Shown piece after piece: positions 33,351-56,529 of a DNA stretch of 64,000 nt; position 1 is the first letter of the stretch; each line of letters starts with the position of its first letter. The translations under genes were made by a program, and so were the position numbers. The DNA lies in contig NIVC01001001.1 of assembly GCA_002269645.1 (NCBI GenBank), forward strand, positions 248,001-312,000, given 5' to 3'. This DNA comes from Macrostomum lignano (taxonomy: Eukaryota). A model generated the notes under the pieces. It was not told the DNA's origin. It saw only the letters and a list, made by a program, of their open reading frames with translations, and did no database searches.

Positions 33351-36300
33351 ATCCAAGTTTTACAAAACGCGTCATATATGCATATTTATATGTCAATTGT
33401 GTTACAGGGTATAACTTCTGCCTGTGGTTTATCCCACCGCTGCCACCAATTTGCTGTAGGGGTCGTGGGGGTGGGAAGTTTAATCCTATGCTGACACCAC
33501 GTTGTGTTAGGGTTATTGGGAATTTTCGAGGTTTTCTTAGAATTCGGGGTGAACTGCGCAATTTATACTACTAACAGGAGTAAGCCGTAGGTTGCTCCTG
33601 GTGGCGTGGTGTGTCCGAGCGGCAAGACACAATCTATGTTAACTTAACTAGTCCGAGGGAGGGCTACGCGATAGATCGGAGTTGCCTGGGAAACGGGGCG
33701 CACTAAGGGGAATTTTAATAGCTAATGGAGAATGCTGACATGGAGGGGATGTGCCTTAATAGGGAATTGGATAAAGGCAGGGCGCCTAAACAGACAGTGC
33801 GTCTGGATGAGGAGTTGGCAGATCGCCAGGTTAATCAGAGATCTGGGGAAGGGAGGCCACACGCCTGTCCAACTGATAAGGGAAAGGGGGTTAGAAATAT
33901 TACTCAGGAAGAGACTGTACGTTCTCTGGGGAAGAGGGAGGAAGGCTGTACGCTTATAGCTGAACAAATGCCTTCTAGGGAAGAGGGGAGAGGTGACTGT
34001 ACGCTTAAAGCTGAACAAGACCTCTCGGGGAAGGGGAAAGGCGGGCGCCTTCAAAGGAATAACTCATAGACTGATCTATTTTTAGAACAACTGTTCATTT
34101 TGGCCGAAAGGCAAAGCCTGATACTAAGGGGCGGCCACAGAAGTTGGGCTCTATACCGATTTATTTGCCTGTATTTATAGTAATTTTAGTGAAAATGGCG
34201 GACAATTCATAACAAAATATATAAGGAAATAAATTTTATGACGAGTTTAACGAATAATATAGCTATAGCATACAATCATATAAGGTAACATTTATTACTA
34301 TAACAATTACTCAAAACCAAATGTAGCTGATTACGCTATACTACCATTAGTAGAGTTTACAAGTCGAGATTCTTACTGAAAAAGGTTACATTCATAATTT
34401 TACATTTTTATATTGAAAAGCTGATTATATCATGTTTATTTTCATTTATTTCAATAGTTGAAACACAGAGCATGCAGAAGCGCCCACCCACCCATATTAT
34501 ACTCAAAATTTGCAAAGTGGCCGCACATCCAAGAATTAACTCTTCATGTTCTGCTGACCCTCAAAAAGCAAACAGTGTACGCAGAAACCGCCACCCATCC
34601 CCCAAAATTGGCGGAGAGGAGGCATGAGTCAGCCAAAAATCGCTGTCCACACTGTTATTTCCACTCCTTCCATACTTCATCCCTCTAGAATTCAGCCCTC
34701 CCCTTCGTCACCACTCCGAGACAATTAAGTCATTCCCAACCCCTCTCCCCGAGTCAAATAAGTTTTCAAAAGACGTGTATATACTCGTATTTACGCAAAA
34801 AGCCGGCCAGCTGTCAAGGAATTCCGACCACTTTCAGTGTACAAACAGATATTTTCACAGCACGGACCCTATAATAAACCTCATTCAGCCAAAACCCCTC
34901 TTCTCCGATTACGTCATCCATGCCGCCCCAGTTAGCAAAAAACTAACTTTTAATGCACATATGAGCACCGCAAATCCGTGTCCACCAACCTCCAACTGCA
35001 TTGACATAATACCCTGCTTTTGTCAATGTACACAATCTATGAATCACATCTCTCAGTGTCTCCTCCGCATACAATTCCGAGACTGAATTCTATTCATGTA
35101 TGTTCAAATAAATACTTTGACACTATAACCCATGCGGTATACTAGAAGTAGTGAAGTCCACCCGCCCAAAAACTTGCTGCTATGCCAATTCTATCGCATC
35201 CCCTGCCCTCTCACTAAAAGCTTTCAGACTTTATGAAAGTTCGATCTATCGAAGCAGGAATGAATCACCCACTGACCTCTCCAAGTTGGAATTCCGTCCA
35301 AGTTTAATAAAAGCTAAATTACTAGCTCGTAAAAAGCACATTTCATAAAAGGCGAGTTTTCTCCAGTTTCTTTAATTTTGCCGTTTCAAGTTAGACTTTG
35401 TTGATCAAGATCAGTAATTTCATCACTGGAAACCATCATTTCAACAGCTAATTTGCCCAAATGCCGTTTCAACTTTACTTGAGACGGCTTCGAAGCAGGA
35501 ATGAATCCCACACAGAAGTCCACAAGCCAGCCCAGCCCAAGAAATGGTTAATGAATGGTAAAAATTTATTAGAAATGCAAACTTTTTCATGAAAAAACAC
35601 GAGTTTTCCTTATTTTTTTGATTTTTAACGTTAAAATGCTTACTTTATGGATCGAAATATGTCATTTTATCAATAGAAATCATAATTTCTGCTAATAAAC
35701 CATCACAAATGCTGTTTCATCATTCAAATAGGCATGTAGGCATGTAGGCATGCCCAAGAAGCTGGGGAAATATTCTATAGACACTGTAAAAATGGCGCTA
35801 AAAACACAGTCTGCTATTAAACTTAAAGTTGTCAGTATTCGATTACTAAATCATGCCATTGATGCTATTTTAAACGTTATTCTCAGTTCTGAAGCTCCCA
35901 ACAGCCTCTTTTAGATGCACTGAATCGGTGTTGCATATTTTATGTTGCATCACCCTTCAATTCAACGATTCTCCGCTATACATTCTAGCCATATTCAAAA
36001 TTCAACCCAGGACAATTAATGTTCGCCAATATGGAGAGAACAACACCTACCCCAGCCGGACCAAGGCAATTCTTTACTATCGCGTAAATGCCATAACTGA
36101 CTCTCTGTCCCTATAACCCCAGGTGACAGGGAAGCATCCCCAAACATTACGTAAACAGAAGTAGAAAACTCCGTCTCTCTGATTTGGCTCGAGACAGGGG
36201 CTGTCACCTTTATTACTCTTTGATGGATATTTTAGATGATGGCAAGAGCTTTTCATCGACTATTACTCTTCCCCAAGCCTCTGTCAATCGGATGCTTTGC

Positions 36301-36765
36301 ACACAAGCCCCATTTCACCCAGGTTATTAAATTGATACAGCCACAGCGATTTTTGACATCCATTTTCTCGCAGAGACAGGCGGGCCTTAAAAACTACAGA
36401 AGTTATCTTTCATATTTTTCATCTGTATTTAGCTATTATTGCTCAGCTTCTGCCAATTATTTTCTGGATAAACACCGTTTTCTTTCGCTTCATGCTGCAA
36501 GAGGAAGCGGTCTTCTTCTTTGAGAGACTGTACTCTGGCGGAGCAGCAGTTTTCACTCCTGCGAGAATGCCGGTTGGCTGGCTTCGCTCAGGTCCAATAA
36601 AATACCGCATGAGAAAAGAATTGATGGGGTATTTTCGACCCCCAACTTTTCTATGCCAAATGCAGAAGCGAGTGTACAATCGTACATTAATCTAGAAAAT
36701 ATAGACCCCGGAAAGAAAATCACGCACACTTCTCGTGCCCCTACCCCATCCTCCCTCTCGCGGGG

Positions 36766-36773
36766 TATATAAA
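36766..36773 (+). promoter_or_regulatory. Candidate TATA box (TATATAAA) of the pPolB gene
   Basis: GGGGTATATAAAGCG about 210 bp upstream of ATG 36984, followed by a CAG-rich leader. Confidence 0.45.
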
Positions 36774-37073
36774 GCGAGTGAGAGCTGCGGCAGCCGCATC
36801 AGCAAAAGCAGCCAGCAGCAGCAGAAGCCACAACAGCAGCATCAACTGCTTCAACAGCATCAGCCTACAACAGTGGCAACACAGCAGCAGCATCAGCACA
36901 GCAGCAGCAGCAGCAAAAGCAACAACAGCAGCGCCAACTGCCTCAACAGCAGCTACAGCCGCATCAACACCAGGCACAGAAGAATGGCATCAAAACGACC
37001 AGCTGCCGAATCGGCCATATCGGCATTGTGGGGGCGAGCCGGTCCCTCACAGCCGCAGCAGCAACAGCAGCAG

Positions 37074-37185
37074 CACCCCCTGGGATTTACTCCCAGCCTG
37101 CTGGGTAATCAGCAGGCCCTATCCGGCGCCGCGTCTTTGTCGCGGGGGGGAGGCAACGCCCGTTCTTCGGGCGGCGAAGAGCGCC
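37074..37185 (+). ncRNA. HDV-like ribozyme of element A
   Basis: P1 CACCCCC/GGGGGGG (one A-G mismatch); two hairpins in J1/2; P2 GGCGC(C)/(GA)GCGCC; P3 GCG/CGC; L3 TCTTTGT; P1.1 AG pairs CT; GCAA; P4 CGCCCG/CGGGCG; J4/2 GCGAA with C37175. Confidence 0.8.
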
Positions 37186-37335
37186 GGGAATCGGTCACCG
37201 CTCCTGGCTCAGGGGCGGTGGATGTGGCTCGGTCCGGCCCTCTGTGCTCAGCCTTTGTCGCTGGCTCTGTCAGCGGTAGGGGTTTGGTACCTGGTCCGGT
37301 TATTTCGAGCTCGGTCCGCAGTCAACAACAACAAC
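37074..37335 (+). mobile_element. Element A: ~260-bp non-autonomous RIME/SINE-like element with 5' HDV-like ribozyme and (CAA)n tail
   Basis: 5' end is homologous to the E3 5' end. 3' end TCCGCAGT(CAA)n matches E3 TCCGCACT(CAA)n. CAACAGCAGCAG is duplicated at 37062-37073 and 37332-37343. No coding capacity. Confidence 0.75.
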
Positions 37336-37353
37336 AGCAGCAGCACCCGCCGG

Positions 37354-37443
37354 GGGGACAAGAAGGCACCCTCCTAGCGAACACCATGGGGTCCCCGGAC
37401 GCCCCCGGTCCGCGCAACAGGACCGAGGCGACTAATGGCCTTC
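37354..37443 (+). ncRNA. HDV-like ribozyme of E2
   Basis: P1 GGGGAC/GTCCCC starts exactly at the TSD-defined 5' end. P2 GAAGGC/GCCTTC; P3 CCC/GGG; P4 CGCC..GGTCC/GGACC..GGCG; J4/2 CTAA with C37432. Confidence 0.78.
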
Positions 37444-38832
37444 ACAATCAGCGATGCTCCATATGGAGCGAGAGAGCCAATACTGCGTGCATGGAGACCG
37501 AACCTCAGCAACAACAACAACAAGGGCAACAGATCTCGACGACGCCCCCCATGCTGAGAGCCTACCTACTGAACAAGTCCTGCGACTGCGAGGCGGTTGC
37601 GACCATCCTGACCGCCGACCCAAGCACGGCCGCCGGAGGAATACCGCGGAGCCGGGCCCAGAGCTCATCCTACAGTTCAACTGTAACGGCGTCAAGAGCC
37701 GCCATACTGAGCTGGCTAAATGGCTCCACGTCAATCGTCCGGCTGCGGTCCTACTGCAGGAAACGAAGCTTGCCAGCGACACCGATTACATCCCTCCTAC
37801 CGGATACTACGTCGCCGCGCGCTGCGACGGCCTTCCTAAAGAGGCCGCCGGCACCCGGGCCACCGAGAACGAGGAAGGGGGGGCACCTCTCCAGCCCACC
37901 CAACCCAGTGGCCCCGAAGCTAACCCTAACGAAGGGACCAGCGCGGACAACTGCCCCACGCCATGGGCAAACTGCGGCCGCAAGATTAAGCGCCCACGCT
38001 GCCGCATCCGTTGGCCGGCTGACAAGAATGATAAGGCGGAGTGGTGCCGCGGCTGCCGCTCAGGCAGAACCGCCTGCACCCGCAGAGACGAGCCGTGGCC
38101 ACAACCACCGCAACCGCAGCCACAGGCCCAGACCCAGAGTGCGCAACACAATCGTGAGCCGACCGACAACCAACAGGAGCAGGCACGGAGGACCGCCGCC
38201 TCGAAGCCGCCAATAACTCGGCCCAAGAACAGGACGAACAAAGCGACCCACACCAGAGGAGGCACCCTGATCCTAGTGCGCGCCGACATTGCGTCCGACA
38301 CTACGCCATCGCCGCCGGACAACGAACGCCAACTGCTAGACTGCGCCACCGCCACCATCCACCTCAAAGGCCAGGAGCCGATCACGCTGGTTTCCCTCTA
38401 CGCACCACCGACCAGCAACCAACGGGGGGAAACCTGGCAACCCCCGCTTCATCTGGTCCCGAACGCCGCTGGCCCTACCGTCGTCGCCGGCGACTTCAAC
38501 GCCCACGGCAGTTGGGACCGGCACCAAGACGAAGATGAGCGCGGCAAAATAGTGGAAGCCTGGGCGACCTCCCGCAACCTGAGACTTGCAAACGGCGACT
38601 ACCATACGCGAACTAACCCAGCAACAGGAGGCAAATCTACTCCGGACCTTACCTGGACCAGCAACAACCTCCTGCAAGGCATCGCAGAGAGCTGGACGAC
38701 CCTCGACGATCTGGGGTCCGACCATCTGCCCATCTCCTTCCCGGTCCAGAGACACCCCAGAGCGCCGCGGAAGGGCAAGAACCTGCCACGGGCCACGTGG
38801 TGCTTCCGCAAAGCGGACTGGGGGAGCTTTAA

Positions 38833-40899
38833 CCTCTTCCTGACGAATTGAAAACATGTCATCTCAATTGCGAACGGGTGGCCTGCATCGCAGGCCATAG
38901 AAAAATTTCCAAGTTTTGTGAACTTCTGATCTCCTCACTTAAAGACGGATGACCTGCTATGCAGGCCATGGCTGCAGGCAACAACGATATTGTCTATGGG
39001 CGTGTTTGTACTTAGTGTCACAGCTCCTGACTGAAAAAAATTGTACTGGAGTTCTCACTGCATTGACAGGTTAAATAGTTTTAAAGTTATGTCATAGACA
39101 GTTGGTTTGACTGTCCACTACTAAAGACCTGGAGACTTATGACTTCTCATGAATGTGGTTATGAAAGTCACTGTAAAAAAACCTAGCATAAGACTTTGGA
39201 TTTTGTAACAATTGGCATACAGAATACGAGCAGTTATACATGGAATCACTCAACGAAGAACCCGATTTTGAGCAGTTGATGTCTGATGACGAGGATCAAG
39301 ATTCCACTACTGACTCGTCCGATGAGGCTTCCGATCTAGACAATGCATCCGTGGATGAAGAAATAGGTGGCTGGCAACGCGTCGTACCCGGAGAGAATGG
39401 TTTGCAGGAGCCAGATTCGGAATTCATGGCGACCTCTGGCTTGCATCCGGATTTGGTGGCGCCAGCTGATCCAGACAACAATATTCAATGGTTTTTTGAC
39501 CTATTTTTAACTGACGCGCTGATGAACAAGCTGTGCGAGTGGACCAACAAGAAAGCTTGGTTTGAGTTAGAAAGGTTTCAAGCTGAAGGAGGTGAGCCAG
39601 CTGAGGTGCCACCAATCTTGAAGACTTGGAAGAATTGCACATTGAACGAGATCAGGAAGGTGATAGCGACCAACTTTTTCATGGGGCTGAGCAAGAAGCC
39701 GGAATTGCACCTTTACTGGTCTACGGACCCGTTCGACCAGTGCCCTTTCATGCAGCAACCTTCAAGCCTGTCAAGAGATCGATATAAACAAATCATGCAC
39801 TTCCTGCGCTTCTACGACTGCACCGCAATCGCAGACTTGAACGACCCTCTAAGAAAGATTCGACCGTTTCTTAGAATTGTGCAGCAGGCAATGCAGAATA
39901 CTTATTTGCCAGAGCAGAACATCTGCATTGACGAATCCCTAGTGTTGTACAAAGGACGCCTGATTTTTCGTCAGTACATACCAAGCAAGCGAAACAAGTT
40001 TGGCATCAAAATGTACTGTCTATGTGAATCCCAGACAGGGTACATGTGAAACTTTTTAATTCACAGTACGGATGCGGAAAACGGAAAATTTGGACAAGGG
40101 CTGGAGTGTGACCACCTTTCTATCAGCGAGCGCATTGTGGTTGAGTTAAGCAGCCAGATTTTAAACCTTGGCTACCACCTGTTCACGGACAGCTGGTTTT
40201 CTTCGGCTCGACTGGCCGAGTTCCTGCTGTCTAAATCCACATTTCTGACGGGCACAGTTCGACAAGATCGCGGGATCCCCGACTGTCTACGGCAGCTGGC
40301 TCTTCCTGCCAACTCATGTGCATTTGCTCGAAAAGAGGGCCTGCTTGCTGTGAAGCTTGTTGATCGAAAGCAAAGTGGAGTTAAGACGGTTAACTTCATC
40401 GACACCAGGAGCATTGCTGGTACCGCCGAGATCACCCGAATTCGACGTGGCGGTCAGCAAGAGGTGGTAACAAAGCCGATTACAGCTGTTGTTTACTCAT
40501 TTCTGTTGAAACCTCTGCGTACTCGTATTTTAATAAATTTGTAAAGTTCTTCTTGTTGAAACCGCGGGTACTTTTTGCTATTTGTCAGATTAAAAAGTAA
40601 AAAATATTTCCTTTAATAACGGTTTGTTCTCTTCCATAAATAAAATTATCTTGAACCACAGCGTAGTACCGTGTCTTTGCTTCTGTTGAATTAGCGGATG
40701 GCCTGCCATGCAGGTCATCAGTCCTTAACTGCAGTGCCACACAGATATCTATGGTCAATCGTTCGGCTCAGCAGAATTAGCCGTCTGGAATAGTGAGCTA
40801 GAGTTGACATTAATTTACCCACAGACTGCACGGCATAAAAAACCGTTTTGAGTGGAAAGGCTCTATGGCCTGCTATGCAGGCCATCCGTCGGGTTACTG
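38833..40899 (+). mobile_element. piggyBac-superfamily DNA transposon nested in E2
   Basis: TTAA at 38829-38832 and 40900-40903. Excision restores the E2 frame ADWGSF|KDELTKID (E1: ADWSGFKQELATID). Inverted subterminal palindromic motifs at both ends. Confidence 0.9.
39240..40544 (+). pseudogene. piggyBac (PGBD4-like) transposase, premature stop and 3' truncation
   Basis: CIDESL, YIPSKRNKFGIK, FTDSWF, GTVR motifs. TGA at 40047-40049 where Trp is expected, with the frame continuing. The third catalytic GGVD motif is absent. Confidence 0.85.
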
Positions 40900-43800
40900 T
40901 TAAGGACGAACTCACTAAGATCGACGGCCAAAGGGCTGACTACCCAACTCACGGCGTCCAACTCGCACATCTTCACGCCATCATCTGTAACGACATTCTA
41001 ACGGCCGCTGCCCATAACATACTCAAAGGGGCCAGAACTGCTGCGAAACCATTCTGGACTGACGCCTGCGCCCAAGCCACCCGGGAGTGCAAAGAAGCCC
41101 GGCACGTCACCGAGCTGTCCCCGAGCGACGACAACCTGGCTAGGTTCAAAGCGGCCCGTAACAACTCCAGAAAGGTGAACCGCCAGGAGAAACGCCGCGC
41201 CTGGAGCGAGAAGGCAGCTGAGCTCACCATCAACAGCGACCTTTTCCGCACTCTGCGCCAGATGCGTGGCGATGGCCCCAAACCAAATAGCGGCGCCTCC
41301 CTCCAGAGAAAGAAGACGGGGCAGCAAGAACCATCTCGGCCGGCCCGCACCAACCTGGAGAAGGCCAACCTGTTCTGTCAGCAATACGCCGCTGTCTCTA
41401 GAGTTAAAGGAGGCCCCAAGACGCCCACACCAATCAAGCCGCGAGAGCAGCCCTCAACTCCAGCTGCACGTGCAATGGCTCACGCACCGACATGTGCTCC
41501 GCCTTCAGCCTGACCGAATACCGCAGCGCTGTGCGCTCGCTCAAATCCGAGAAGGCACCAGGCCCGGACGGAGTTACCAACGACATGCTTAAAAGACTCC
41601 CACCGACCACGGACCTGAGGCTCCTGGACCTCATCAACCGGTCTTGGAAGGAAGGAGACTGCCCGATGCAATGGAAGAAATCGGTCATCATACCTATCCC
41701 CAAGAAAGGGAAAGACCCTAGTAACCCGGAGTCCTACCGCCCAGTGGCACTCACCAGCAGCATCGCCAAACTGGCCGAACGGATGGTGCTCCAACGCCTG
41801 CGCTTTGCCCTCGAGAATTCTGGCCGCCTCAGCAGTACCCAGGCCGGCTTCCGCCGCGGCCGCTCTACTGAGGAACTCATCGCGAGCACCTGCCAAGACA
41901 TCTTTGACGGTCTGGAGGCGGTCCCACACCTGCGGTCAGTGCTGTGCCTTCTCGACTTTAGTCGTGCTTACAATCGGGTCTCGAGGGCTGGGCTGATCGC
42001 CAAGCTGAAAAAGCTCGGCATCCCTAACGACGTGCTCCGCTGGATCCGGAGCTTCCCTGCCGACCGACGTTCCCGCGTACGAGTCGGCAATTGCCTGAGC
42101 AATGAAAGAATCTTCAAGGAAGGCCTCCCCCAGGGCAGCGTGCTGGCTCCCCTGCTCTGGGTCGTCTACATCAACGACCTGGACACGGAGATTAAAGAGG
42201 CCCATACGGACTGCAAACTGAAGCTCTACGCAGACGACAGCGCCCTCCTGGCCACCGACCGGAGCCTCGACGCCTGCGCTGCGAAGCTCCAACCTGCCCT
42301 GGACGCTGTGCACAAATGGTGTCAGACGTGGAAAGTGGAGTTGAGCGCTGCGAAATGCGTCTACGGAACCTTCACCCTGGACCCCAAGGAAACCAACGGA
42401 AAGAAGAAGGTCAGCCTCACCATCGGTGGCCAACCGCTGGCCTATGACCCAGCGCCACGCTACCTGGGAGTGCGCCTCGACGACCAGCTCGCATTCAACA
42501 AACAGGGGGCCGACGTCCGCGCTCGTATGTGCGCTCGGCGCCGCCCGCTTGCGGCGCTAGCCAACCGCAGCACCGGAGCCGACCACCATACGCTGAGAGC
42601 CGCCTACGTCAGCACTGTCAGGGCTGTCGCCGACTACGCCGCGGGCACCTGGCTCTGCGGGGCAGCCCCCTCAACAAGGCACTCCATCGAGCGTCAACAG
42701 GCTGCCTGTGCCAGGATCATCACAGGCTGCATCCTACCTTCGGACACGCGAAGCGTCCTCCGTCTTGCCGAGCTCCCACCGGTCAGCCACGTCGCCTCCG
42801 AAAGAGCCGCCCGCCTCCGGGAAAGGATCCTGAGATTGGGCCCAGGCGCAGCAGCATACGAACCTGCTACCAGGAGCACGCGCCCGAGGCTGAAGAACCG
42901 CACCTACGAGGCTGGGCAGAGGAGACCAACGACAACGGACGCCCAAATTGACACGCCCCACATCGACCTCAGAGACACTAGGCGCCCTTTCCGCAACTGC
43001 TGGCGCCGAGCGGCACTAGAGATGCCAGCCAGCGTCGAGCTCGACCAGTACATCAGAGACGACATATGTAGTCCCGGTATCGCTCCCTGGGCGGCACACA
43101 CGGACAGAATCCGGTTCTGTCTGGAGGCAGCCTCGAGGTGCAGCAAATCAGACCCGTCCGCCGACCGGAACGCAGCCGCCCGCGACACCCTGGAGGACCT
43201 ACCTGAAGCAGACATCAACATTTGGACGGACGGCTCCGTTGCCGACGGCACAGGGCCAGGAGGCAGCGCCGCCATCATCGGTACTAACCTGGTGACCTAC
43301 GTCCGGAAGAGCCCAGCTGGCCGCTTCTGCAGCTCATTCGACGCTGAGATGCGCGCTATCAAAGACGCCCTCACCTTTGTCGCGGAGAAGATCGCCCCTC
43401 GCGCAGCCCGCATCCGGCTGTGCAGCGACTCGCTATCGTCGCTCACGGCCCTGCAAGCGGGCCCCCTAGATCAGCGCACCGAGAGTGGCCTCTCCTGCTG
43501 GCGTTTCCTCATCGGCCTGGGCACCTGCGACCTCAATGATATTGACCTCGCCTGGGTCCCTGCCCACTGCGGCATACCCGCTAACGAAGCCGCGGACAGA
43601 GCCGCGAACGCCGCAGCCCGCTCTCCGCAAACCACGGCTGCCATTTCGCTGGGCGCTGCCAAGGCTGCCATCCGCCGTGACCGCCGTGCGCTGGACGACA
43701 GCGCTATGCCCCCGGCCTGGCCAACCTTTCACGCTAGAAGCCGGACCGAGCACACGGCGGTCTGCCAACTCCGAGCCGGTGCCTCAATGCTCGCCGCCGA

Positions 43801-44053
43801 GGTCCGACACCGTTTCGGCCTGACGGACTCCCCGCTCTGCCAGGACTGCGGGGCACCGGACTCGAGCCTGCACGCGATCTACAGCTGCCCGAGGGGGGAC
43901 GCGCATCGCACTCGCCTGGTCAGCACTGAAGTGGAGCGCCTCCTTACCGAACCGGGCTTGGCCCTCTCGCTCCTCCGGAGCATGGGGCGTTGGCCCCCGT
44001 CTATTTCGGCGCCGCCGCGCCGCTGACGAGCGCTGAAGAAGAAAGAAAGAAAG

Positions 44054-44160
44054 CACCCGCCGGCCTTTACTGCCGACCTGGAGAAGCTTCTCCAGGCCCT
44101 AATAGGCGCCGCGTCTTCGTCGCGGGGGGAGGTGTCCCTATGGGATATCAAAGAGCGCCT
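44054..44160 (+). ncRNA. HDV-like ribozyme of E3
   Basis: Same architecture as element A, with compensatory changes in both J1/2 hairpins and P4 (GTGTCCC/GGGATAT). L3 TCTTCGT; J4/2 CAAA with C44149; P2 AGGCGC/GCGCCT. P1 pairing is imperfect in this copy. Confidence 0.7.
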
Positions 44161-47100
44161 ACACCTCGGACACCCTGTGTCCCATCGGCTAGAAGAAGTT
44201 TGTGTCAACGGAAGCTGCAGCCCGCCGATGCTTCCCGTCGGTCGAGGGTGGCAGTTGGGCCCACCACCTTCCCAAGCTGCGCTTAATCAGGGCCGGCGAC
44301 ATCGAAACCAACCCAGGACCCCCCCCCCGTCGCACTGTGGCAAGGCCTGCTGCGGCAAGCCGCTCCGCGACAGGGCGCTGGTCTGTCGGCAATGCAACCG
44401 CGGTTTTCATCTCCAAAGAATCTGCTCTGGGTTGAGCCGTTGGGCCTCGGACCGCGCTGTGCGCGAGAACACCTGGACTTGTTCTGACTGCTCACGTGGG
44501 CCAGTCTCATCCTCAGAGCCGCCGGGACAAGACACCGAGGCCACTGCTCAGCAAGGCACTCCCGACCAGGCGGAGTCACCGGCCGAGGATCGGAGACTCA
44601 CACTGCTTGCGAGGATTAAAGAAGAAAAGCCTAACTGCGCCAAGTGCAAGAAGACCATCCGGGTGTCGACGGTGATTTCCTGCTGTAACACCTGTGAGGC
44701 CTTTTTCCACAACGCATGCACCGAAGCCACCAGAGAACAGATCAAGCAAGAAGTCCGCAGGGGCCGCTAGCGGTGTCGTTTCTGTACCGAAGCCCTCACT
44801 ACCGGTGGAGCTACGCACTCCTCGCCAGAAGCCGACCCCACGGCCCAAAGCGAGACGCACCGAAGACGGAAATAAGGACCTGCCGATAACAAGGGCCTCA
44901 AGGTCCTGCAATGGAATGCGGACGGCATCCGTAACAAAATGGGAGAACTGGAGGAGCTGGTCCAACGCCTCAAAGTTGATGTCGTCATGATCCAAGAATC
45001 TAAGCTTGACTCCGTCTCCCGCACGCCAAAGATCCCCGGCTTTACCACCGTGAGAAAAGACCGACGAACTCTACGTTCCAGCGAGACGTCCAAGGGAGGA
45101 GGTCTCCTCACGCTCATCCGCCAAGAAATCCCCTTCCGGCGGCTCAAAGGCTGGAGTGGGGACACGGTGGAAGGCTGCCGCATCGTGATCAACCTTAGTG
45201 CCAAACAGCGTCTCGTGCTCACCAACATTTACCGGCCGTCCATCAGGCGCAATGCTGGCGCCGACTGCCGGGAGCACCCGGACATCGATCTCTGGCTGAA
45301 GCCGCACCAGCGCGAGATTATTGCTGGCGACTTTAATCTCCATCACACGACCTGGGGTAGTCTGCCTGGCCAGGGGCCCGAGGGCGCCGAACAAGCCAAA
45401 GCCCTGCTGGAGTGGTGTGACAGTAATGGGTATTGTGTCCTCAACTCGGGCTCCCTCACCTGTCTCGATCGCCGCGACGGTGGAGAGAGTGCCCCCGACA
45501 TCAGCCTCGCTAGCGCCGGCCTCGACGACCTCTGCTCGTGGGAGGCCCTTGACGAACTGGGCTCCGACCACAAACTCATTCTCATCACAGTGGATGGCGA
45601 CCGCGCTAGCACCGACCAGAAGATTTGTCTCGCCTGGGCCTGGCAGAAAGCTGACTGGAACAGCTACCAGGCCCAGCTCGAAGACGATAGCTATGGGCTC
45701 AACAAAGGCACTGTCAAGCAGCAAATCCAACGCCTCTGCTTTCGTATGAGTAAGGCGGCCAAAGCTTGCATTCCCATGAAGCGCGTCTCCTCCAAAAACA
45801 AGCCCTACTGGGATTCGGAGCTCTCTAGTCTTCGGGACGAAAGAAACAGACTCAGATCCCGTGGCGGTGACCCGGACGAGTGGAAGCGCCAGAATGCCGT
45901 GGTCAACAGGGCCTGCGCAGAGAAAAAAGCCGCCTTCTGGCAGGAATTTGTTCAGGACCTGTCTTATTCCTCAGACGTCAAAAAAGTGTGGCGTACCATT
46001 AAAACCCTAAGTGCTGGAGAGCAACCGACCGCGAAGAACGAAATCCTAGTGGCGGACGATAAGGAGTGCAGCTCGGATCGCGACAAAGCAAATGCTTTTG
46101 GTCAACACTACGCCAAGATCAGCACCCTCAAGCACGACGCCACTGACCGCGCCTTCAAAGTTAGCACCGCAAAGCGTTTGAATAAGTATCCCACAGGGAC
46201 CTCCGAGCACGATTGCGCCCTCACCATGGGAGAACTCAAACGAGTCATCTCACACCTCGACGTCACCAAAAAAGCCGGCCCCGACGGCATCGAAGCGGCT
46301 TTCTTCAGACACCTGCCGGACTCGTGGCTCACGGCCTGGCTCACGGTCTTTAATCGGTGCTGGTCCCTAGGGCACTGCCCGGGAGTCTGGAAGAAGGCGG
46401 TGATCGTCCCACTTTTGAAAGAGGGCAAAGACCCAGCCAACTGCAGCAGCTTCCGGCCTGTTAGTCTCACTTCCATCTGTGTTAAAACCATGGAGCGCAT
46501 TGTGATGGACCGGCTCATGCACTGGATCGAACTCAACAACACGCTGCAACCGTGGCAAGCTGGTTTTCAGAGAGAGCGTAGCTGCGAAGAGCAAGTGGCG
46601 CGTCTGGTCCAGGAAATCCAAGACCACTGGGAACAACGCCCGCCTCGCAAAACGATTGCTGTCACCCTTGACTGCTCCCGCGCCTTCGACCGGGTCTGGC
46701 GAACCCGCCTCCTTGTCCGTCTCATGGATGAGGGAGTCCCGGGTCGCATGGTGCACTGGTTTGCCAGCTTCCTGGAGGGGCGCCAGATTGCCGTCCGCGT
46801 GGGCGATACGATTGGCAAATGGAGGCCGCTTAAGGAGGGGGTGCCGCAGGAGGCTGTGTGCTCGCCGGTGCTCTTCCTCCTGTACATCAACGACTGGGCG
46901 GACTCCCTGGTCCCAGATGTCAACTACGCCGGCTTTGCTGACGACCTGGGCGTCTGGGCCTCGGGCAGCAACATCCAGCAGATTGCGGAGCGCCTCCAAC
47001 TGGCCATCGATCGCATCGACGCCTGGGCCACTGATCTCCGTATCGATCTCAATCCCCTCAAAACTGAATGCTGTATCTTCTCGAGAGACTGCAGGGACCG

Positions 47101-50100
47101 CGACCGTACCCTCAACCTGTGCATCCGAGGCCAGCAACTCCCAACCAGGCAGGAGCTGCGCTACCTGGGTGTCTGGATCGACAGCGGCCTGCTCTTCAAG
47201 CGGCAGTCCGACGAAGTTGCCGCCAAACTGCGCCGTCGTTGTGCTGTCCTGCGTGCACTATCGCATCGCGAATGGGGGTGGGACCGCGCCACGCTTAGGA
47301 CGGTGTATAAAGCCGTGGTGGAGTCTGTGGTTTGGGATGCGGCTGCAGCCTGGATGCCCTGGCTCTCCCAGACTCGCCTTAATGACCTGGACAGAGCCCA
47401 AAAAGTCGCTCTGAGACTTGTCTCCGGTCTACCAAGCTCGACTCCCAGCGTGGCCATCTACCGTGAGGCCGATTGTGTGCCCATCAGCCTGGAGGCCAAG
47501 CGACGAGCGCTGGTCGCCGTCGAAAAGGCGCTCCGGCGGCCCGAGGCGGACCCCTGGAGGTCCAGGTGTGAACTCAGGACCCCCACCCGGCTCAAAGCCA
47601 ACCGTGGCCTCCGCGAACAAGCCCACTCAGTGCTCAACGAAATCCTGCCGCACAGCCGTCTCCCGGGAGCCTGGGTCAGAGCCCCGCCGTGGGACACGCT
47701 CAGCGGCTCGAACCAGCTGAGGCTCTATCCACAACTGGTGAGACCGCTCCGTAAATCCGACAGTCAGCACACCCGCGATCCGATCATCGCCGACACCTTC
47801 CGAGAACGCCTGCCCAGTACCTGCTACTTCACGGACGGCTCCGCTTCGGGTGGCACCGCCAACGGCGGCGCCGCCTGGATCCTGTTTGACCAGGAGACGG
47901 GCACGGTCATCCGGGGCGGCCACTCTCCAGCGGGCAGATGGTGCAGCTCCTTCGAAACCGAGCTCCGCGCGCTCCGGGATGCTGTCGTGGATGTCATTCA
48001 GCAGGACATTGGCACCGCCGCCCTCCTCACCGATAGCCAGGCGGCCGTCAGAGCGCTGATAGCCGACCGACCCACCACTAACGCGTTACTCGAAGACCTA
48101 AAGGCTCTTCTTCGGCAAGCAGCTGGCCGTTGCGTTCTCACGATCCAGTCGATTCCCGGCCATGCTGGCGTGGCTGGTAATGAGTTCGTCGATCGCGAGG
48201 CCAAAGCCGCAGCTCTTCTGGAACAAGCCCAAGTGGCCATCTCGCTCGAAGCAGCCAAGCAGTTTATCTACCGCCGGCTCGAATACCTTCCGGACCTGAC
48301 CGGCCATCTGAAGGAGACTTACCAAGGACGCATCACGCACCATAACGGCAGCCGGCGAGAGCAAGTCCTCGTTGCGCAGGTGAGAGCTGGACACTGCCCC
48401 TCCTCGGCCTATTACGCTAAGCGCATCGGCAAAGCTCAGCTGGCCGAGTGCAGGCTTTGCGGGCTCGAGGTAGACCAATTCCACCTGGTCCACTGCCCTG
48501 CGACCGATGTCGCCCGAAGACAGAACAGCATTTGCGATCTGAAAGACCTAGCCGATGGGAACCTGGTGGCGCGGCTCCTGGTGTGGATCGATTGGATCCC
48601 GCTCTAGACGGCTGCACTCCGCACTCAACAACAACAACAGCAGCAGCAGTCACAGCCTCCGGCCGCAAAGAGGGGACGACAGCTAGGTGAGTCTTGCAAG
48701 TCTGTGTAGAAATTTCTTTTTCATCTTTATCTTTTACGAAACTCTAAATTCGGGATTATTGAAAAAAGATAGGGCTATTCTCTGTATGTAAAAAGTGCTT
48801 TTTCATCTTTGGCATTCATTTGGCTTTCGCAAACTCAAAATCAGGCTTATTGAAATAATATATAGGCCCCACTGTAAAACTGCTTTTCACCCTTCGCATT
48901 CAGAGTTGCTTTCGCAAACTCTAAATTCAGCTTATTGAAATTCGGATTCGGACTTCGGACTGTCTGTCGCAGATTGAAATAAAGGGAGGAAACTGCTTTT
49001 GGTTCAGCATTCATTTGTATTCGTGTGATTTACAAACTCTAAATTCACGCTTATTGAAAAAATCGATCACACACTTACCGACAGACCATTTTTAGGATAT
49101 TGGATTTGGCTTAAAATTTCTGAATTCAGGCTGTAGCTACTCCTGCCATCGATATCGTATTGAAGTAAATGGAGGAAACTGCTTTTGCTTTAGATTTATT
49201 TGGATTTCTCAATTCAGGCCTATTGAAATATCAGAGTTTTGGAGAATATCCGCAGTATAGAAATTGTATAGTTGGGTAATGCCTGTAAAGGATAGTCATA
49301 AAATTCCAGGGGCTGTATGACTAATCCTTGAACTAGAGAGGAGCGGGCGGGCAGGTTTTCTGGCAGTGATAAAATCAACCCCGATTTTTGGGCTCAGCAT
49401 GATGATGTAATCACCGCTGCATTGATAGTAGGGGTTTGGCGGCAATAAAACTTGGTTGCTACAGTGAGGGTTATTAATCAGACATTTATGACAGCTTTAA
49501 AAATCCAAAAGCGGCCGCGTGGTATTGTTGCTAGGTGTCAAGGAGGGGTACGAAGCAATGGAGACACGTGCCGATTGTGGGTTTTCTTAAATTTTACAAT
49601 GGCTGCTGCTGCAGGATCTGTGTTATCAGAGGATCATCAATCAAACATTTTGACAGCCTAAAATTCGAAGCGGGGTCAATCAACCCCACATTACTTTTGT
49701 TGCTGCGTGTTGGAACGTGCCGAGTTTTACAACTCGCCGATTTTTGTTGCTTGGGGGTGGAGCGATAAAATTGCTGCTGCAGCAGGGCAATAAATCAAAA
49801 ATTTTTGACAGTTTTAAAAATTCGAAGCGGTCAGAATTTTAGTCGCCATGCACATTTTAATTGCAGATTTGGCTCAATTTCAACCCCCGCCCCAGCCCGA
49901 CACTGTCGAAGGCGATGGTAAGGAGTTGATTTTATTTCATGAGTCATTCACCCGCCGCCGCCGCCTCTCGCAATTCTAATTTCAAACCCTCAATTTTTTC
50001 AGGCTTCATTGCGCGTCTTGGCGGGGCGAAAGCCCTGCCTAAATTTAGAGCCGCAGGGTATGAGTATGTGGTATCACTCACCGCAGCAGCTGCAGCAGCA

Positions 50101-51040
50101 GCAGATACTACCGATATTCGAGACACATTCGCTAGGGTAATAGCAACCCTCTGCGCGGACCTACATGCAAACGATTTCGTCGCAGCTAAGCTGTCGGCGG
50201 ACAACATGATGTTGACCATCAGTGTCCCACCGGTCCGCGACTTCACTGCAGAGCTTGTTTTCAAGCACATTAACAAGATTCTGCAGTCGGACTCCAGTGT
50301 CTTGGGCAACAACTTTAAATTGTTTTTGCTCAAGGCCTGGGTCTCGCGAGGTGGCTGCGGCAGCCTAGATGCGGCGGAGAAGCACATTCAGGCCAGGCAC
50401 GCTATGGGCAACAGCTATGTTGTCATCGCCAACAGCGAAAAGCGTTGCCTCATCAGGGCGCTAGTGGTGGCCAAGGCTTTCGCGGACATGCAGGCCAAGG
50501 CCATCACCGAGCAGACTTGGCGGACCATCAAAGCCGACTCCCCGCTGCAGACGAGGCTGACTGGGGAACTACAAATTTCTGCCAATCCGTATTCGGTGAG
50601 TAAAAATTATCTTGCGCATTTTAATTTATATTTTTATTAATATACAAATGTTTTAGTCTTTATCAACCATCGCACAGGCCGGGCCTTTCGGGGTCGATGT
50701 GCTCCCGCAACTGCTCGCGGCCCTCAATGCTCAGTCGCCCGGCCGAGATTTCGGCGCTCGTATATACAGCGCCGAGGAGGGCAACACATGTGTGTATGCC
50801 CTCCCTGGCAGCACAGTGCTCAATTTGCACCTGATTGGCGAGCACTTTACCGCGGTGTGCAAGGTGCCGCCGTTTTTCGGTGCCCGCCGCTATTGCGACC
50901 GCTGCCAGCAGGCGTACGACTGCGAGTCTAGAGAGCACAAGTGTGCCAACACCTGCCCTCAATGCAAAGTGCCCGGCACCGACTGCAAGAGCCTGCGGCG
51001 CGACTACAAGCGCTGCGCTGACTGCGGGCTGAATTGTTAC

Positions 51041-51391
51041 AATCATTAATCATTAATCATTAATCATTAATCATTAATCATTAATCATTAATCATTATTA
51101 TTAATCATTAATCATTAATCATTAATCATTAATCATTAATCATTATTATTAATCATTAATCGTTAATCATTAATCATTAATCATTAATCATTAATCATTA
51201 ATCATTAATCATTAATCATTAATCATTAATCATTAATCATTAATCATTAATCATTATTATTAATCATTGATCGTTAATCATTAATCATTAATCATTAATC
51301 ATTAATCATTAATCATTAATCATTAATCATTAATCATTAATCATTAATCATTAATCATTAATCATTAATCATTAATCATTATTATTAATCA
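51041..51391. repeat. (AATCATT)n 7-bp satellite inserted in pPolB coding sequence
   Basis: The coding frame CYN|HHRKNRAGRSRC is restored by removing it. Confidence 0.9.
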
Positions 51392-52126
51392 CCACCGGAA
51401 AAACCGGGCGGGGCGGTCTCGCTGTAGCTCCATCAGCGTCTGCCCCAAATGCAACTATTTGGAGGAATTAAAAGTGGGCCAAAAGGAGCCGGAGCACAAG
51501 TGCGGCCATGTCAAGTGCCCACTGTGTAAACAGTATGACGAGGCCGGCTCGCATTTGTGCTACGTCAAGGCTCCCAAAGTGAAGGCTTCAACTGCCCCGT
51601 ACGCTCGTACGGGATGAGGAGAAGCAGCATCATGTGCACCTGGTGACTGCCGTCACGTGCTGCGAGACCTGTTCCGGCCGGGCATTTCCGCGCGAGACTT
51701 GCCGCCTCTGCAATGGCCTGCATAGCACTGCCAATTGTCTGATTAGCCGCGATCTGGGGGAGGAATTCTCCAATTGCGTCAGCCACTCAGACTGCGCCTA
51801 CCAAATGGCCGGCTTTGTGGCTGTGGGCCCGGCCTCGCTGAATGCTTTTTTCGCTTGGCTAAGCACCACATTCCGAGGCGGCGCTATCGTTGTCGCACAC
51901 AATGCATCGGGCTACGATTCTTTTCTACTGCTTGGCGCTCTGCTCAACGGCCTGGCCAAGAAGCGGCCCCAAGTGTTGTTCCAGGGCAGCCGGCTAATGT
52001 GCATGACGGTTGATAAATTGGTATTTAAAGATTCGCTAAACTATATACCAATCCCGCTTGCGCAATTCCCCAAAGCTCTGGGGCTGGTAACAAAGCTGGC
52101 CAAGGGGACCTTTCCACGAGTTCAAC

Positions 52127-52858
52127 TAACTAACTAAATAAGTGATTCCGGCGCCTCAGCCAAATTAATAGGCTCTTACGCCACTAGAGAAAATATCAGT
52201 TCCAGATTGGGAGTGTACTAATGTACACTAAAATCCTAATTAGAATGAGAGGACTGTAAATTGGGCAAGTACAAATCAAAAACCTCTCCGGGGGACAGTG
52301 ACAGCGGTTCGACGAACCAGTCAGGGAGCCCGTGCCCAAAAAATCCAGGTTAGATAGACCCCTTGCCTATTAGGGTTGGCCCGAAGGCCGAGAGCCGTGG
52401 CAACCGTGCTGGGGCCGACCGCCCACCATCCCCGGGTAATAAAAACAAAACCTCCTCGGGGCCTAAACCCCGGGTACTCTTGCCAGACAGTCTCTTATCT
52501 TTGAAGCGGCAGGAGGGCTAATCGCCGGAACTGTTTCACCCTTTGCTTCGCCAACCCGCCATTTCTATAGTGACCGTGCCAACGGTCTCGTCCTGCTCAG
52601 ACTCAGTCCTGGTTCTGGCACACTCCAGCTTTAATAGGGTCACTGGCTGTTCGCTCAGAGGGCACCGTTGAGGGGGACCGTCAGAGCACCAACTGGAACA
52701 GGTATAGGCCTGCCTTCCTATACAGCTACCCACAGCCCTTCCTGATCCACTATTACCCTCCAACCCAGCCTACTAACTCATTACAAGCTTTCGGCCAGGC
52801 AGAGACAAGTTTCACAGAGGTACTGCGGTTAGGCGCCTCTATGCGAGACAAAACCACG
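52127..52858 (-). mobile_element. 732-bp retroposed insertion (probable truncated LINE or SINE) in pPolB
   Basis: 11-bp duplication ACGAGTTCAAC at 52116-52126 and 52859-52869; (TTAG)n-like tail on the minus strand; splits KGTFP/EFNKPANWNYVGP. Confidence 0.7.
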
Positions 52859-55083
52859 ACGAGTTCAACAAGCCGGCCAATTGGAACTACGTGGGCCCCT
52901 ACCCGGCTATTGACTATTACGGCGGCAAGGCAAACAAGGACTACGACTCCATCTGTAATTGGCTGGCCTCGCGACAGGGCGAGTTGTTCAACTTTAATCG
53001 GGAGTATCTCGATTATTGTTTGAGCGACACGGTGCTGCTTCGCGAGGGCTGCATCAAGTACAGGGCGATAATTGGCGAAATTTGTGACGGCCTGGAACCG
53101 TTTGTTCAGGCCAATACAATTGCCAGCCTCGCAACGGCCGTTTTCACCACCAAATTTATGGAGCCCAACTCGGTCGGCGTGATTGCCCGGCAGGCCGACC
53201 AGCAGTCGTTCAAGGCGCGCAAGTGGCTGGCCTATTTGAATGCCACCGAATTTGGCGGGCGGCTGCGCACGTGCGACTCGACTGGCGGCGAGGCTGTCAT
53301 TCTCGGCCGCAAGGTGGACGGCTTCGATGAGGCCACCAACACTGTTTTGTAGTTTCATGGCTGCTTCTACCATGGCTGCGAGCAGTGCATGCCCGATCAG
53401 GATGTCGTCCACCCACTCAAACGGCAGCCTCTGAGCCACATCCGCCACGAGACTGAGTGGTTCACTCGCGAGTTGGAGCGCAATAATTACAGTGTTCGAG
53501 CCATTTGGGAGCATGAATACGACACTGTACTGGCGTCGCAGGCCGATTTCCTTGCCGCAACTGCCCATCTGCGCGCCCCGCTCAAGATGGAGGATGCGCT
53601 CTACGGCGGCCGCGTAGAGTGTTTCATCCCGCATGCTGTGGCCAGTGAGACTGAGGCGCTCAAATATCGGGATGTGGTGAGTAGTGATACTACTAATGTA
53701 GTAGAATATTTTGCAAAATGTGAAATACAGTTTATGAAAAATAATGTTTTATTTCAACTGGCAGGTCTCTCTGTACCCGACGGTGCAGTCGAAAGACCCA
53801 TACCCGATTGGCCACCCGGTGCACCATCCGACGCCGCAGACGCTCGACTCTGACGCGCTGGCCAGCTACTTTGGTATTTCCAAAGTGACGGTGCTGCCGC
53901 CGTCAGATTTGCATATTCTGCTGCTGCCCTACAGGGTGTAGAAGAAGCTCTTTGTTGGGCTTTGCCGCACCTGTATGGAGCAGCAGCAGCAGTGCAGCGG
54001 CGAGTACTGCCACCACTCAGACCAGGAGCGGGCGCTGACTGGCACCTGGGCAACGCCGGAGCTGCGAAAAGCCTTCCAGTTGGGCTACCGACTGCAGGTT
54101 GTGCATTCGTTGGCCTACTGGACAGAGCAGCGGACCGGCCTGTTCAGCGACTATGTCAGCACCTTCCTCAAGTTGAAGGCCGAGTCGAGCGGCTCCCCCG
54201 GCATGTCAGACGAAGACAAGGCCGCCTACATTGCCGATTTTTACGCCAAGGAAGGCGTCACGCTGGACAAGGTCGAGCCCAACCCTGGACTTCGCTTTGT
54301 AGCGAAAATCTTTTTGAATTCGTAAGTAATCATAAATTTTGTTTCGTAAACGATTTCTTCTACTAACAGTAACCAAATCTTTTCACGCAGGCTCTGGGGC
54401 CATTTTTGTCAGCACGATGACCTGACATCGACCGAGATTGTGTCCAGCTACGAGGACTGGCTCGCCCGGCTGACCGACCCCAACCTCAAAGTCAAGGCCT
54501 GCGAACCGATTGGCAGCGAGTTTATGCTGCTGGAGTACCGGCACCGCTACTTTAATCAGTGGCCGTTCCGCTACTCCAATGTGCCAATCGGGGTCTTTAC
54601 GACCACGCAGGCCCAGCTGCGCCTGTACGAGGCCTTGGAGGGTCTCGGCGAACGGGCCATTTGCTGCGACACCGACTCGAAAGTAATGGCTGGATAAATT
54701 CTTTTAGAATTGATTACGTACTTGGCATATGGAACTAATTGCCTATTTTCTCTCCCACACAGGGTCGTTTACCGGCATTCCGAGATTCCGAGGGCCAATG
54801 GGAGCCGCCCCATGGCACGAGCCTCGGAATGTGGACCGATGAGGTGCCCGCAGGCAGCCGGATGACCGACTTTGTAAGTGGGGGACCCAAGCTCTACACT
54901 TACATTGTCGAGAATGCGGCCGGTGTCCCCAGCCAGGTCCTGAAGTGTAAGGGTATTCGCCTGACCCCTGAGATACGAGAGAGCAGCGATGACTTGCGCA
55001 ACACCCTCCTACACGGTGGCTCTCTGCAGCTGCCGCAGTTTCAGTTCAGGCGCGACAAGGCGTCTTGTACCATACACACTGTT

Positions 55084-55446
55084 TTTTTTATTAGGGGCAG
55101 GGGGGTTGTGTGCACCCTGGCGCACTTTAAGCGACATAGGCACACAACCGGCGAGAGGCATTACTGCCCATTCCGCCGACTCCCCTGAGCAGGCATACAA
55201 GCGCGCGGATACGTAGGCAGGCACACACTCACACAGGAGTGTACAGCGGCCCTAACTTTATTTATCGTTAGGCATGTACACTTCACTGCGCCTTGGGGGG
55301 GGGGGTTGGCTCTCAAGGCCGTTAATTGCACGAGCAGAAGCCAAGCCGAGATTCCAATTCAGCCCTAAATTAATGTGACTGCACTTGGAATCGAGCCTGG
55401 GTCGCTGGCACACCAGAGCAGCTGCGCTACCGCTGGGCTACGGCCC
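55084..55446 (-). mobile_element. tRNA-derived SINE in the pPolB C-terminus
   Basis: 14-bp TSD CCATACACACTGTT (55070-55083, 55447-55460); A box TAGCCCAGCGG; B box GGCTCGATTCC; A-rich tail. Confidence 0.85.
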
Positions 55447-55880
55447 CCATACACACTGTTAGTATGGACAAGACGTTTCAGCGCGTCCTGACGAAACGCG
55501 TGTACGAGGCCTGCAGCAGGCCTTATGGTTATAAATAATGTAGTAGTCCTTGTGACTGACTATTAAATGTACATTTTTGTATTGCTAAAATTATCAGAGT
55601 AAAAATCTATTTGTTGTACAATAATTTGCATGTCAATGTACATAAAGCATTTTTGTATTGTATGCGGCGAAATTGCCAATGTAAAAATCTATTGTACATA
55701 TTTTGCGTGTCAAACTTGTTTAAAATCATTTATGAAAAGAAAATTATTGAAAAACAATGTAAAATTTTCCGTATATTCTACTCGCTGGTGATGCTGTACA
55801 TAAATTATTTCCTGAAATATGCTACTGATTTATTGTAAATATATCTTTGTAAATAGTTTATATACGATGTGAGCTACACA

Positions 55881-56402
55881 GTTAGTTGACTCATTTATTA
55901 ATAGTAGTAGATGGGATTGTACAGCGCGTCTACACCAATTCTCACCTCTGCTCATACTGTACACACGTAGTGTTTCGAGTTGGAATTGTACATGTAATCT
56001 TGTGGGGTTGGCGATTCGAATAGCGCGCAGAGAGCGCGGACCGTCGTGTAGATTGGGGATTAATGTGGGACACTGTACATATAGAAATTGTCATAGAAGT
56101 ATAGCTTAATGTACAAGTGTACATGTAGAGTATGCACTGTACAAGTTGACAATGTACATGTAGAATTGGGGGGATAGACATAGAAGTAGACATGTACATA
56201 TACAATTTGAGATAGATACATGTAGGGATTAATGCAGTACATAGGATTAATGTGCATATGCGAGTACATGGATTAATGTACATATACTATATACTATATT
56301 GAAGTATATCACGCTTAGAATAGCGTTTTCATATACTACTTACTTCATTTTTCAGATAGTAGTATAATTTGCGTTTTTTGCGTCAAATCTGCCTAAAAAT
56401 CA
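55881..56402 (-). repeat. Right long inverted repeat
   Basis: Reverse-complement match to 32801-33350. Confidence 0.9.
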
Positions 56403-56529
56403 ACGACATTTGGCGCGATACGTAGTAATATATTTTTACATCAGAATTAGTTTTAGAAACGATCTGCGCATTAAAAAACGCTGTAGTTTTCTCAATTTAC
56501 GCCCAGCGTGCCAATTCTGCGCTTACTTG

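Follow-up and report, generated by a model that had tools for sequence, protein, structure and literature searches.

Polinton core genes have been published as intronless, and the capsid module has been taken as evidence of the viral nature of these elements. Capsid-less, integrase-less replicons with a protein-primed family B DNA polymerase (pPolB) and inverted repeats are represented by the cytoplasmic and mitochondrial linear plasmids, which lie outside the nucleus, are unspliced and do not occur scattered over chromosomes. Such pPolB plasmids are named in the accessible part of PMC5718144. Animal Polintons/Mavericks with a VSR-type polymerase (pPolB2) measure 13-25 kb according to the accessible text of Jeong et al. 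(2023; PMC10748475), and intact vertebrate Mavericks comprise eight ORFs without introns, end in (AGT)2 or (AG)3 and are flanked by 6-bp duplications according to that of Barreat and Katzourakis (2021; PMC8097293). Nine Polintons without MCP, also without protease and ATPase, are recorded in the available part of Krupovic et al. (2014; PMC4028283). Spliceosomal introns occur inside the dinoflagellate eupolintoviral elements, which are full-length and gained them recently as introner insertions (PMC12166617, as far as its accessible text goes).

The unit described here lies in a window of 64,000 nucleotides of DNA from the flatworm Macrostomum lignano. It consists of an inverted repeat, a gene-less arm, one polymerase gene predicted to be spliced and a second inverted repeat, in this order (Table 1), and its length is ~9.5 kb once later insertions are subtracted. 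The copy is broken by nested LINEs, stops, a deletion and a frameshift. With moderate confidence, this dead copy is read as that of a reduced DNA element derived from Polintons and long resident in the flatworm nucleus. Like the pPolB linear plasmids it is capsid-less and integrase-less with inverted repeats, and unlike them it is nuclear, predicted to be spliced and chromosomally dispersed. The protein-primed polymerase with a VSR-like insert, the repeat length (within the 100-1500 bp range) and the tree position among animal-type relatives are shared with the animal Polintons as presented in the accessible part of PMC10748475, which differ in their greater length, in their integrase, ATPase, capsid and 5-8 bp duplication, in their protease (none was found here) and in lacking the six introns. 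With the vertebrate Mavericks, in the part of PMC8097293 available, the unit shares a doubled-triplet repeat end and polymerase homology. Neither integrase loss nor intron gain is described for the capsid-less Polintons in the accessible text of PMC4028283, and the M. lignano introns differ from the introners in the available part of PMC12166617 in being apparently old, mutually dissimilar, common to lineages and located in an animal.

Table 1. Positions of the features of the unit within the window.
Feature	Position	Strand	Remark
Left terminal inverted repeat	32786..33350	.	outer end TTACTACGTA
Stretch missing in some other copies (insertion or variable region)	33343..34468	.	contig joints
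Left arm, 42% GC, no recognisable gene	34469..36760	.	variant DNA contigs cover arm
TATA box upstream of CAG-rich leader	36766..36773	+	sequence; putative function
Probable exon 1, 5' part (ATG to poly-Q)	36984..37073	+	predicted
Nested insertions in poly-Q tract	37074..48627	+	three LINE pieces
piggyBac-like transposon inside first LINE, TTAA duplication	38833..40899	+	PF13843; ends
Probable exon 1, 3' part, ends at phase-1 donor	48628..48686	+	same tail in model P0026
Intron 1, GT..AG, 1180 nt	48687..49866	+	
Micro-exon 2, 51 nt	49867..49917	+	overlooked in first-pass annotation
Intron 2, GT..AG, 85 nt, branch-like site at -27	49918..50002	+	
Exon 3, N-terminal region, homologous to intronless group 2 pPolBs (iE 1e-16)	50003..50595	+	
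Intron 3, phase 0	50596..50677	+	
Exon 4: Cys-rich region, exonuclease, VSR-like motif, start of motif A	50678..53676	+	
Intron 4, phase 0, inside motif A	53677..53764	+	
Exon 5, stop at 53939; end-to-end match to P0058, P0061	53765..54321	+	
Intron 5, phase 2, inside motif B	54322..54390	+	
Exon 6, to motif C	54391..54678	+	
Intron 6, phase 2, at motif C	54679..54762	+	non-canonical donor in window copy
Exon 7, to stop codon	54763..55538	+	
Right terminal inverted repeat	55881..56428	.	begins ~340 bp past polymerase stop codon

The sequence places the gene among the protein-primed Polinton polymerases of VSR type (group 2), pPolB2. PF03175 matches the polymerase, a profile of intronless relatives was matched by eight of the nine exon pieces, and the VSR-like motif FHGCFYHGC at 53353 accompanies a group 2 layout, the relatives being annotated as VSR. 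In the window copy the gene is broken: exon 4 contains an AATCATT array (51041-51391), a deletion with a frame change at the Exo I motif (~51605-51613), an insertion (~52127-52869) with an 11-bp duplication and a stop at 53350, and exon 7 has a frameshift near 54780-54790 and an insertion (55084-55447) with a 13-bp duplication. M. lignano polymerase models made up 38 of the 42 matches in the polymerase similarity search. A total of 68 gene models was seen, 23 in subfamily A and 45 in subfamily B (~56-68% identical), a count that overstates the loci because the published M. lignano assemblies are redundant (PMC5730564, in its accessible part). P0050, apparently the model of the window locus, is included in the 68 and excluded from the junction counts below.

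Profiles of integrase, ATPase and the major and minor capsid proteins found no match in the six-frame window or in the 85 fetched models, and the same profiles recovered 24/24 held-out loci (integrase 6/6; ATPase and capsids 18/18). The first-pass annotation had found none of these genes and no protease; this holds for integrase, ATPase and capsid in the window, and the maturation protease, likewise without a match, was probed only with ORFs clustered with integrases, the arm showing no coding-like segment. Because similarity to the polymerase or to PC4 was the criterion by which the 85 models were retrieved, capsid and integrase genes that are unlinked or split by introns would be invisible in them; absence across the whole family is likely. 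Where the flanks of subfamily B are readable, they hold a divergent PC4-like gene and one ORF (ORF2) alone. Twelve models of this subfamily have a common upstream stretch, which in eight corresponds to the opposite strand of P0030 1-123. This PC4-like protein, P0030, has a predicted PC4/Pur/Whirly-like fold, and its homolog P0194 matches Pfam PC4 (E 2e-4). The pLDDT was 42 for the single-sequence fold and 67.5 for the alignment-based model, for which the likeness to PC4 (Foldseek E 0.08) and Pur-alpha (Z 8.0, rmsd 4.0, 104 aligned) is suggestive only. No trace of the PC4-like gene or protein was detected in the window, and ORF2 had no usable Atlas or Pfam match. A weak match of ORF2 to the left arm that beat 100/100 shuffles was rejected, as it came from the CAG-rich leader and other window stretches matched too; kinship of the PC4-like protein with the PC4-like ORF of canonical relatives had a probability of only 6% and was too weak to claim.

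It is possible, though clearly less probable than a reduced element, that the unit is an internal-deletion derivative of a complete, intron-rich Polinton still in the genome, supplying integrase (and capsid) in trans. Long contigs of intronless relatives do carry integrase, ATPase and capsid genes, and intron-split genes would evade ORF-based searches. Moreover, loose contig ends at 34828-35463 indicate that the left arm differs in some copies, which could hold further genes. The 85 models without a virion or integrase domain and the subfamily B flanks with PC4-like and ORF2 sequence only argue against such a derivative, as does the lack of a 6-bp duplication at the window copy, a single copy with a low-complexity left flank.

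The inverted repeats of ~0.5 kb that had been reported around the gene were confirmed at ~0.55 kb, with 83% identity (BLAST, gapped; 506 matches, 38 mismatches, 18 blocks). Their ends contain the doubled triplet (TAC)2, and the (AGT)2 and (AG)3 motifs of vertebrate Mavericks are absent from them. The 6-bp target duplication proposed as a check was not found at the window copy, nor any of 5-8 bp (flanks CCCCTC / TATATT), which says little for the family because this single old copy has a left flank of low complexity. A contig joint 33342->34469 in runs X1, X2 and X11 shows that the left repeat directly abuts the arm in other copies; a second one, 33394->34305, was seen in X1 and X2. Rfam and tRNA scans were empty. 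The repeats might also be those of an ordinary TA-target cut-and-paste transposon, with the polymerase gene as cargo that does not replicate the unit, which is considered improbable. The ends at this one site can be read as TA + CTACGTA...TACGTAG + TA, and the summed contig depth at 32847 against the interior (13131 vs 647 in X1, 76902 vs 3652 in X2), depth not being copy number, hints at many short elements with the same end. Passive cargo, however, would not retain catalytic motifs across ~60% identical lineages, nor a linked single-strand-binding gene; as a weaker point, the alignment to a paralogous flank repeat at 24740 begins at TAATATA and requires no duplication.

The dispersal of the family is apparent from polymerase models fused to host genes encoding ADAM, zinc-finger, GH18 and ML-domain proteins. 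In P0017 (ADAM) and P0020 (zinc finger) the polymerase is flanked on either side by host exons, with no other viral domain; P0187/P0188 were rejected as polymerase transcripts, being a host ML-domain gene. The earlier suggestion of a formerly domesticated polymerase, here a host gene later copied around the genome, is very unlikely: the TATA promoter, the poly-Q leader, six host-type introns and the long branch would suit it, and against it stand, where a domesticated gene would be single-copy, 68 models, dozens of them dispersed in or beside unrelated host genes in two subfamilies, together with symmetric repeats and a linked PC4-like gene kept in subfamily B. The other earlier suggestion, a nuclear-adapted, stripped-down pPolB element, is supported by the multi-copy dispersal, the introns common to four lineages and a unit with no virion or integrase gene.

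The polymerase gene is predicted to be interrupted by six introns, one more than first annotated. Four short introns had been listed, of which introns 3, 4 and 5 are GT..AG, 69-88 nt long and 24-30% GC (exons 55-62%), and intron 6 has a good acceptor and a branch-like site with a non-canonical GA donor in the window copy, as had been noticed. The phase-1 donor at 48687 had been paired with an acceptor at 50002; the acceptor is most likely 49866, with the micro-exon and intron 2 in between. This micro-exon is joined to the next exon in 20 of the 21 sibling models that have it. The proposed two-part first exon is plausible given the TATA box and the exon tail found in one of the 85 models (P0026), and among the joints listed no read bridges it. 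The GT..AG borders are in phase at five of the six introns. The intron phases fit: against a profile built from 18 intronless relatives, the exon pieces tile without gaps at 887|888, 1069|1071 and 1165|1171 (the last piece starting five codons in).

Additionally, comparison of borders indicates that the introns are old and common to four lineages. P0058 (JGI) and P0061 (Logan), from unrelated contigs, correspond over their full length to 53765-54322 (66% and 58% identity, respectively), precisely the interval between the introns of motifs A and B, and they are the only two of 103 other proteins to start or stop at those intron-border residues. Of 57 sibling models reaching the motif A junction, 22 depart from the polymerase at precisely this point, which would be expected of a donor present there in both subfamilies. 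Subfamilies A and B group with the two other lineages in a single clade (SH-aLRT 100, branch 0.97), which falls among animal-type relatives in a quick tree from which two identical rows were dropped. Identity to intronless relatives was only 29-45%, with Xenopus, alligator and fish polymerase proteins at 34-45% and relatives at <=36% in the one metagenome scan; an ORF of at least 1000 aa was present in 54 of 82 relative loci, in a search that favours unbroken genes. DNA loci of the intron-bearing clade and its repeat were not found in the viral contigs, genome contigs or phages searched. The literature search, with subscription papers and Repbase outside it, returned no report of this lineage and nothing relevant on Macrostomum with Polinton or Maverick.

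No splice joint occurred among the 15 joints listed (120 more exist) from X1, X2, X11 and X17 over 32770-51030, a stretch that ends before the motif A, B and C introns. X1 and X2 are DNA-like, X11 covers introns and LINEs as DNA would, 4 of 30 bins were empty in X17, and whether any of the runs is RNA is a guess. That the introns are post-mortem insertions, never spliced, would suit the lack of an RNA joint among those listed and the one non-canonical donor, and is the least probable reading in view of the five in-phase borders, the zero-gap tiling and the two intron positions that also bound ORFs on unrelated contigs.

For a reduced, nucleus-resident element, the following cycle may be proposed. 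Transcription of the polymerase gene by host RNA polymerase II would start at the TATA promoter, and the six introns, whose anatomy is seen, would be removed by the spliceosome. Protein priming at the ends of the repeats would let the polymerase replicate an excised linear form; the doubled triplet (TAC)2 there could, by analogy with the family, serve jump-back initiation. Re-entry into chromosomes without an own integrase might use an enzyme in trans or host repair, and an element without a capsid would spread vertically and inside its host genome, conditions under which introns could accumulate. Tentatively, and with rather low probability, the family may consist of animal nuclear, spliced, self-replicating linear elements that have lost capsid and integrase altogether and have no Polinton helper. 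Such elements would persist as a polymerase alone or with a single-strand-binding protein and would insert through host repair or by means of an unrelated transposase; in effect, a Polinton would have become a chromosomal linear plasmid.

An old clade with introns in all three polymerase motifs escapes ORF-based surveys. If capsid and integrase are missing throughout, it would represent a clear virus-to-transposon transition, and the integration route becomes the question, in a host that is a laboratory model with public genomes. The window copy itself was later invaded: its poly-Q tract holds a short LINE fragment, a LINE (endonuclease, RT, RNase H) and a second LINE (PHD, endonuclease, RT, RNase H), and the empty site of the piggyBac-like transposon is bridged by an X11 contig.

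The element in the window is a real and unusual variant, an apparently stripped-down member of an old, presumably spliced Polinton lineage in a model flatworm. Its polymerase gene contains six introns, all in phase, and they are almost certainly genuine. The four short introns proposed in the first-pass annotation were confirmed in place by composition, borders and exon tiling, but a 51-nt micro-exon and the 85-nt intron directly after it had been overlooked. Three of the four have GT..AG borders and are AT-rich (24–30% GC, against 55–62% in the exons); the motif C intron has a sound acceptor and a branch-like site, but its donor reads GA in this copy. When the exon pieces were translated one by one, eight of nine matched, in order, a profile of 18 intronless relatives, meeting at profile positions 887/888, 1069/1071 and 1165/1171, and the introns therefore carry no coding sequence. 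The micro-exon is kept in a distant subfamily and was joined to exon 3 in 20 of the 21 models that hold it.

Features of the window and their positions
Feature	Position	Strand	Remark
Tandem units	3500-6240; 11070-12430		six, ~680 bp
LINE within tandem unit	6200-11066		66% to exon 1 LINEs over 2.6 kb
Dispersed repeat, second copy	24740-25320		75%
Open frame	27122-28153	minus	343 aa
Left inverted repeat	32786-33350
Repeat outer end	32786-32900
Contig link to left repeat	34469
Loose contig ends	34828-35463
Polymerase gene	36984-55538	plus	exons 1 to 7
Exon 1 poly-Q	37074-48627		two or three LINEs
Micro-exon	49867-49917		51 nt
Short intron	50596-50677
Intron 4	53677-53764		motif A
Match to P0058 and P0061	53765-54322
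Intron 5	54322-54390		motif B
Intron 6	54679-54762		motif C
Right inverted repeat	55881-56428
Right flank, dispersed repeat	56429-56990
Decayed DUF4371 gene	58410-61935	minus

The window copy is dead. Two LINEs lie inside exon 1, and a piggyBac-like element sits within one of the two. Exon 4 contains a tandem array, has lost sequence at the Exo I motif, has gained an insertion of 0.74 kb and is interrupted by a stop. There is a stop in exon 5 as well, and exon 7 shows a frameshift and an insertion of 0.36 kb. Once these later changes are removed, the unit measures ~9.5 kb.

Integrase, ATPase and capsid-like genes are present in relatives on long contigs, and profiles built from these recovered 24/24 held-out loci. 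The window gave no match, in line with the absence of these genes noted earlier, and neither did the 85 Macrostomum models that had been fetched (best iE 0.29). Integrase and virion genes are likely absent across the whole family, judging from models fetched by similarity to the polymerase or PC4. Contigs of DNA-like runs spanned 30/30 bins of the left half, and some linked the left repeat directly to position 34469; the gene-less arm is therefore common to other copies, while loose contig ends indicate that it differs in some. A family-wide reduced element has about an even chance of being the correct reading. That it derives from a complete helper Polinton rich in introns is possible at clearly lower odds, and it is rather doubtful that a nuclear, spliced linear element lost capsid and integrase altogether and was inserted by host repair or an unrelated transposase with no Polinton helper.

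An upstream stretch is common to 12 models of the second subfamily (B). In the eight examined it corresponds to a PC4-like gene in the opposite orientation, followed by a second ORF; the window copy holds no trace of either. Support for the PC4 assignment comes from a structure match in the Atlas (TM 0.76), from weak fold matches to PC4, Pur-alpha and Whirly, and from a Pfam PC4 match in one homolog. In P0030 the gene and the polymerase share a strand, unlike in those eight models, owing either to an inversion or to neighbouring copies. The second ORF (P0176, P0048, P0191; ~250 aa) matched M. lignano models only and no known family.

The inverted repeats proposed to flank the gene were found, the right one starting ~340 bp past the stop codon. 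No 6-bp target duplication was present at the repeat ends of the window copy, which can be read as (TAC)2 without duplication or as a TA duplication. That the unit is cargo of a cut-and-paste element is unlikely. The left flank is CT-rich and unrelated to the right flank, a dispersed repeat, so the left junction probably changed after insertion. In both DNA-like runs contig depth, which gives no copy number, was far higher at the repeat outer end than in the interior; this hints that a large family of short elements shares that end.

A protein search with part of exon 4 gave 42 matches, 38 of them M. lignano gene models. Over all searches 68 polymerase models were seen, 23 of subfamily A, close to the window copy, and 45 of B (reference models 56% identical, 554/989); models do not equal loci, since published assemblies are redundant, according to the portion of PMC5730564 consulted. 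In several models the polymerase is fused to an unrelated host gene (ADAM protease, zinc finger, GH18 or ML domain), and the copies are therefore dispersed; two sit between exons of a host gene. A domesticated polymerase is very improbable.

Comparison with homologs indicates an old origin for the introns. Two proteins predicted as simple ORFs on short contigs, P0058 (JGI) and P0061 (Logan), span exactly the stretch between the motif A and motif B introns, starting with the first residue past the former and stopping with the last residue ahead of the latter; 0 of the 101 remaining non-model proteins in the same search have such ends. P0058 and P0061 match 53765-54322 end to end (66% and 58% identity; 61% to each other). 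Among sibling models, the motif A junction was joined in 35/57, the other 22 leaving the polymerase exactly there, and the motif B and C junctions in 54/55 and 34/37. A quick tree of 85 rows grouped A, B, P0058 and P0061 as a single clade on a long branch (SH-aLRT 100) within the animal-type relatives and gave it no firm sister group. Of 82 related loci, 54 held an ORF of at least 1000 aa, and motifs A, B and C were uninterrupted in 62, 57 and 58, respectively. That the introns are unspliced insertions is the least credible reading of all.

The element would resemble Polintons in replication, by protein-primed copying, but it lacks integrase, virion genes, target duplication and the Polinton end motif, and its genes are not intronless. 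In the sections consulted, intact Mavericks are intronless with 6-bp duplications (PMC8097293; 10.1101/2022.07.12.499685), with introns limited to cargo genes in the latter; marine nematodes and molluscs have VSR-type polymerases (PMC10748475); nine elements lost capsid, protease and ATPase in concert (PMC4028283); Polinton core components are set out (PMC5718144); dinoflagellate elements hold young introners (PMC12166617); and cryptophyte elements hold group I introns only (PMC12220804). A literature search on Macrostomum with Polinton or Maverick, its scope excluding subscription papers and Repbase, returned nothing relevant.

The unit has a promoter-like TATA box and a group 2 polymerase layout. 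For the reduced element, the gene would be transcribed by the host and then spliced, and a linear form would be copied by protein priming from the repeat ends; repeats of the end motif serve jump-back initiation in the part of PMC8097293 consulted. The PC4-like protein of subfamily B may bind single strands. Insertion could proceed via an enzyme in trans or host repair; M. lignano integrates injected DNA at random (PMC5730564, in part), which makes the repair route conceivable.

Additionally, the near-identical tandem units all contain a (CAG)n tract as well as signals resembling donors and acceptors, and had no Rfam match. The DUF4371 gene is presumably a hAT-type transposase. The 343-aa frame, with a Cys-rich start, hydrophobic segments and no Pfam match, probably encodes a host membrane protein. 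RNase H-bearing LINEs were repeatedly found within (CAG)n/(CAA)n tracts and may target this microsatellite.
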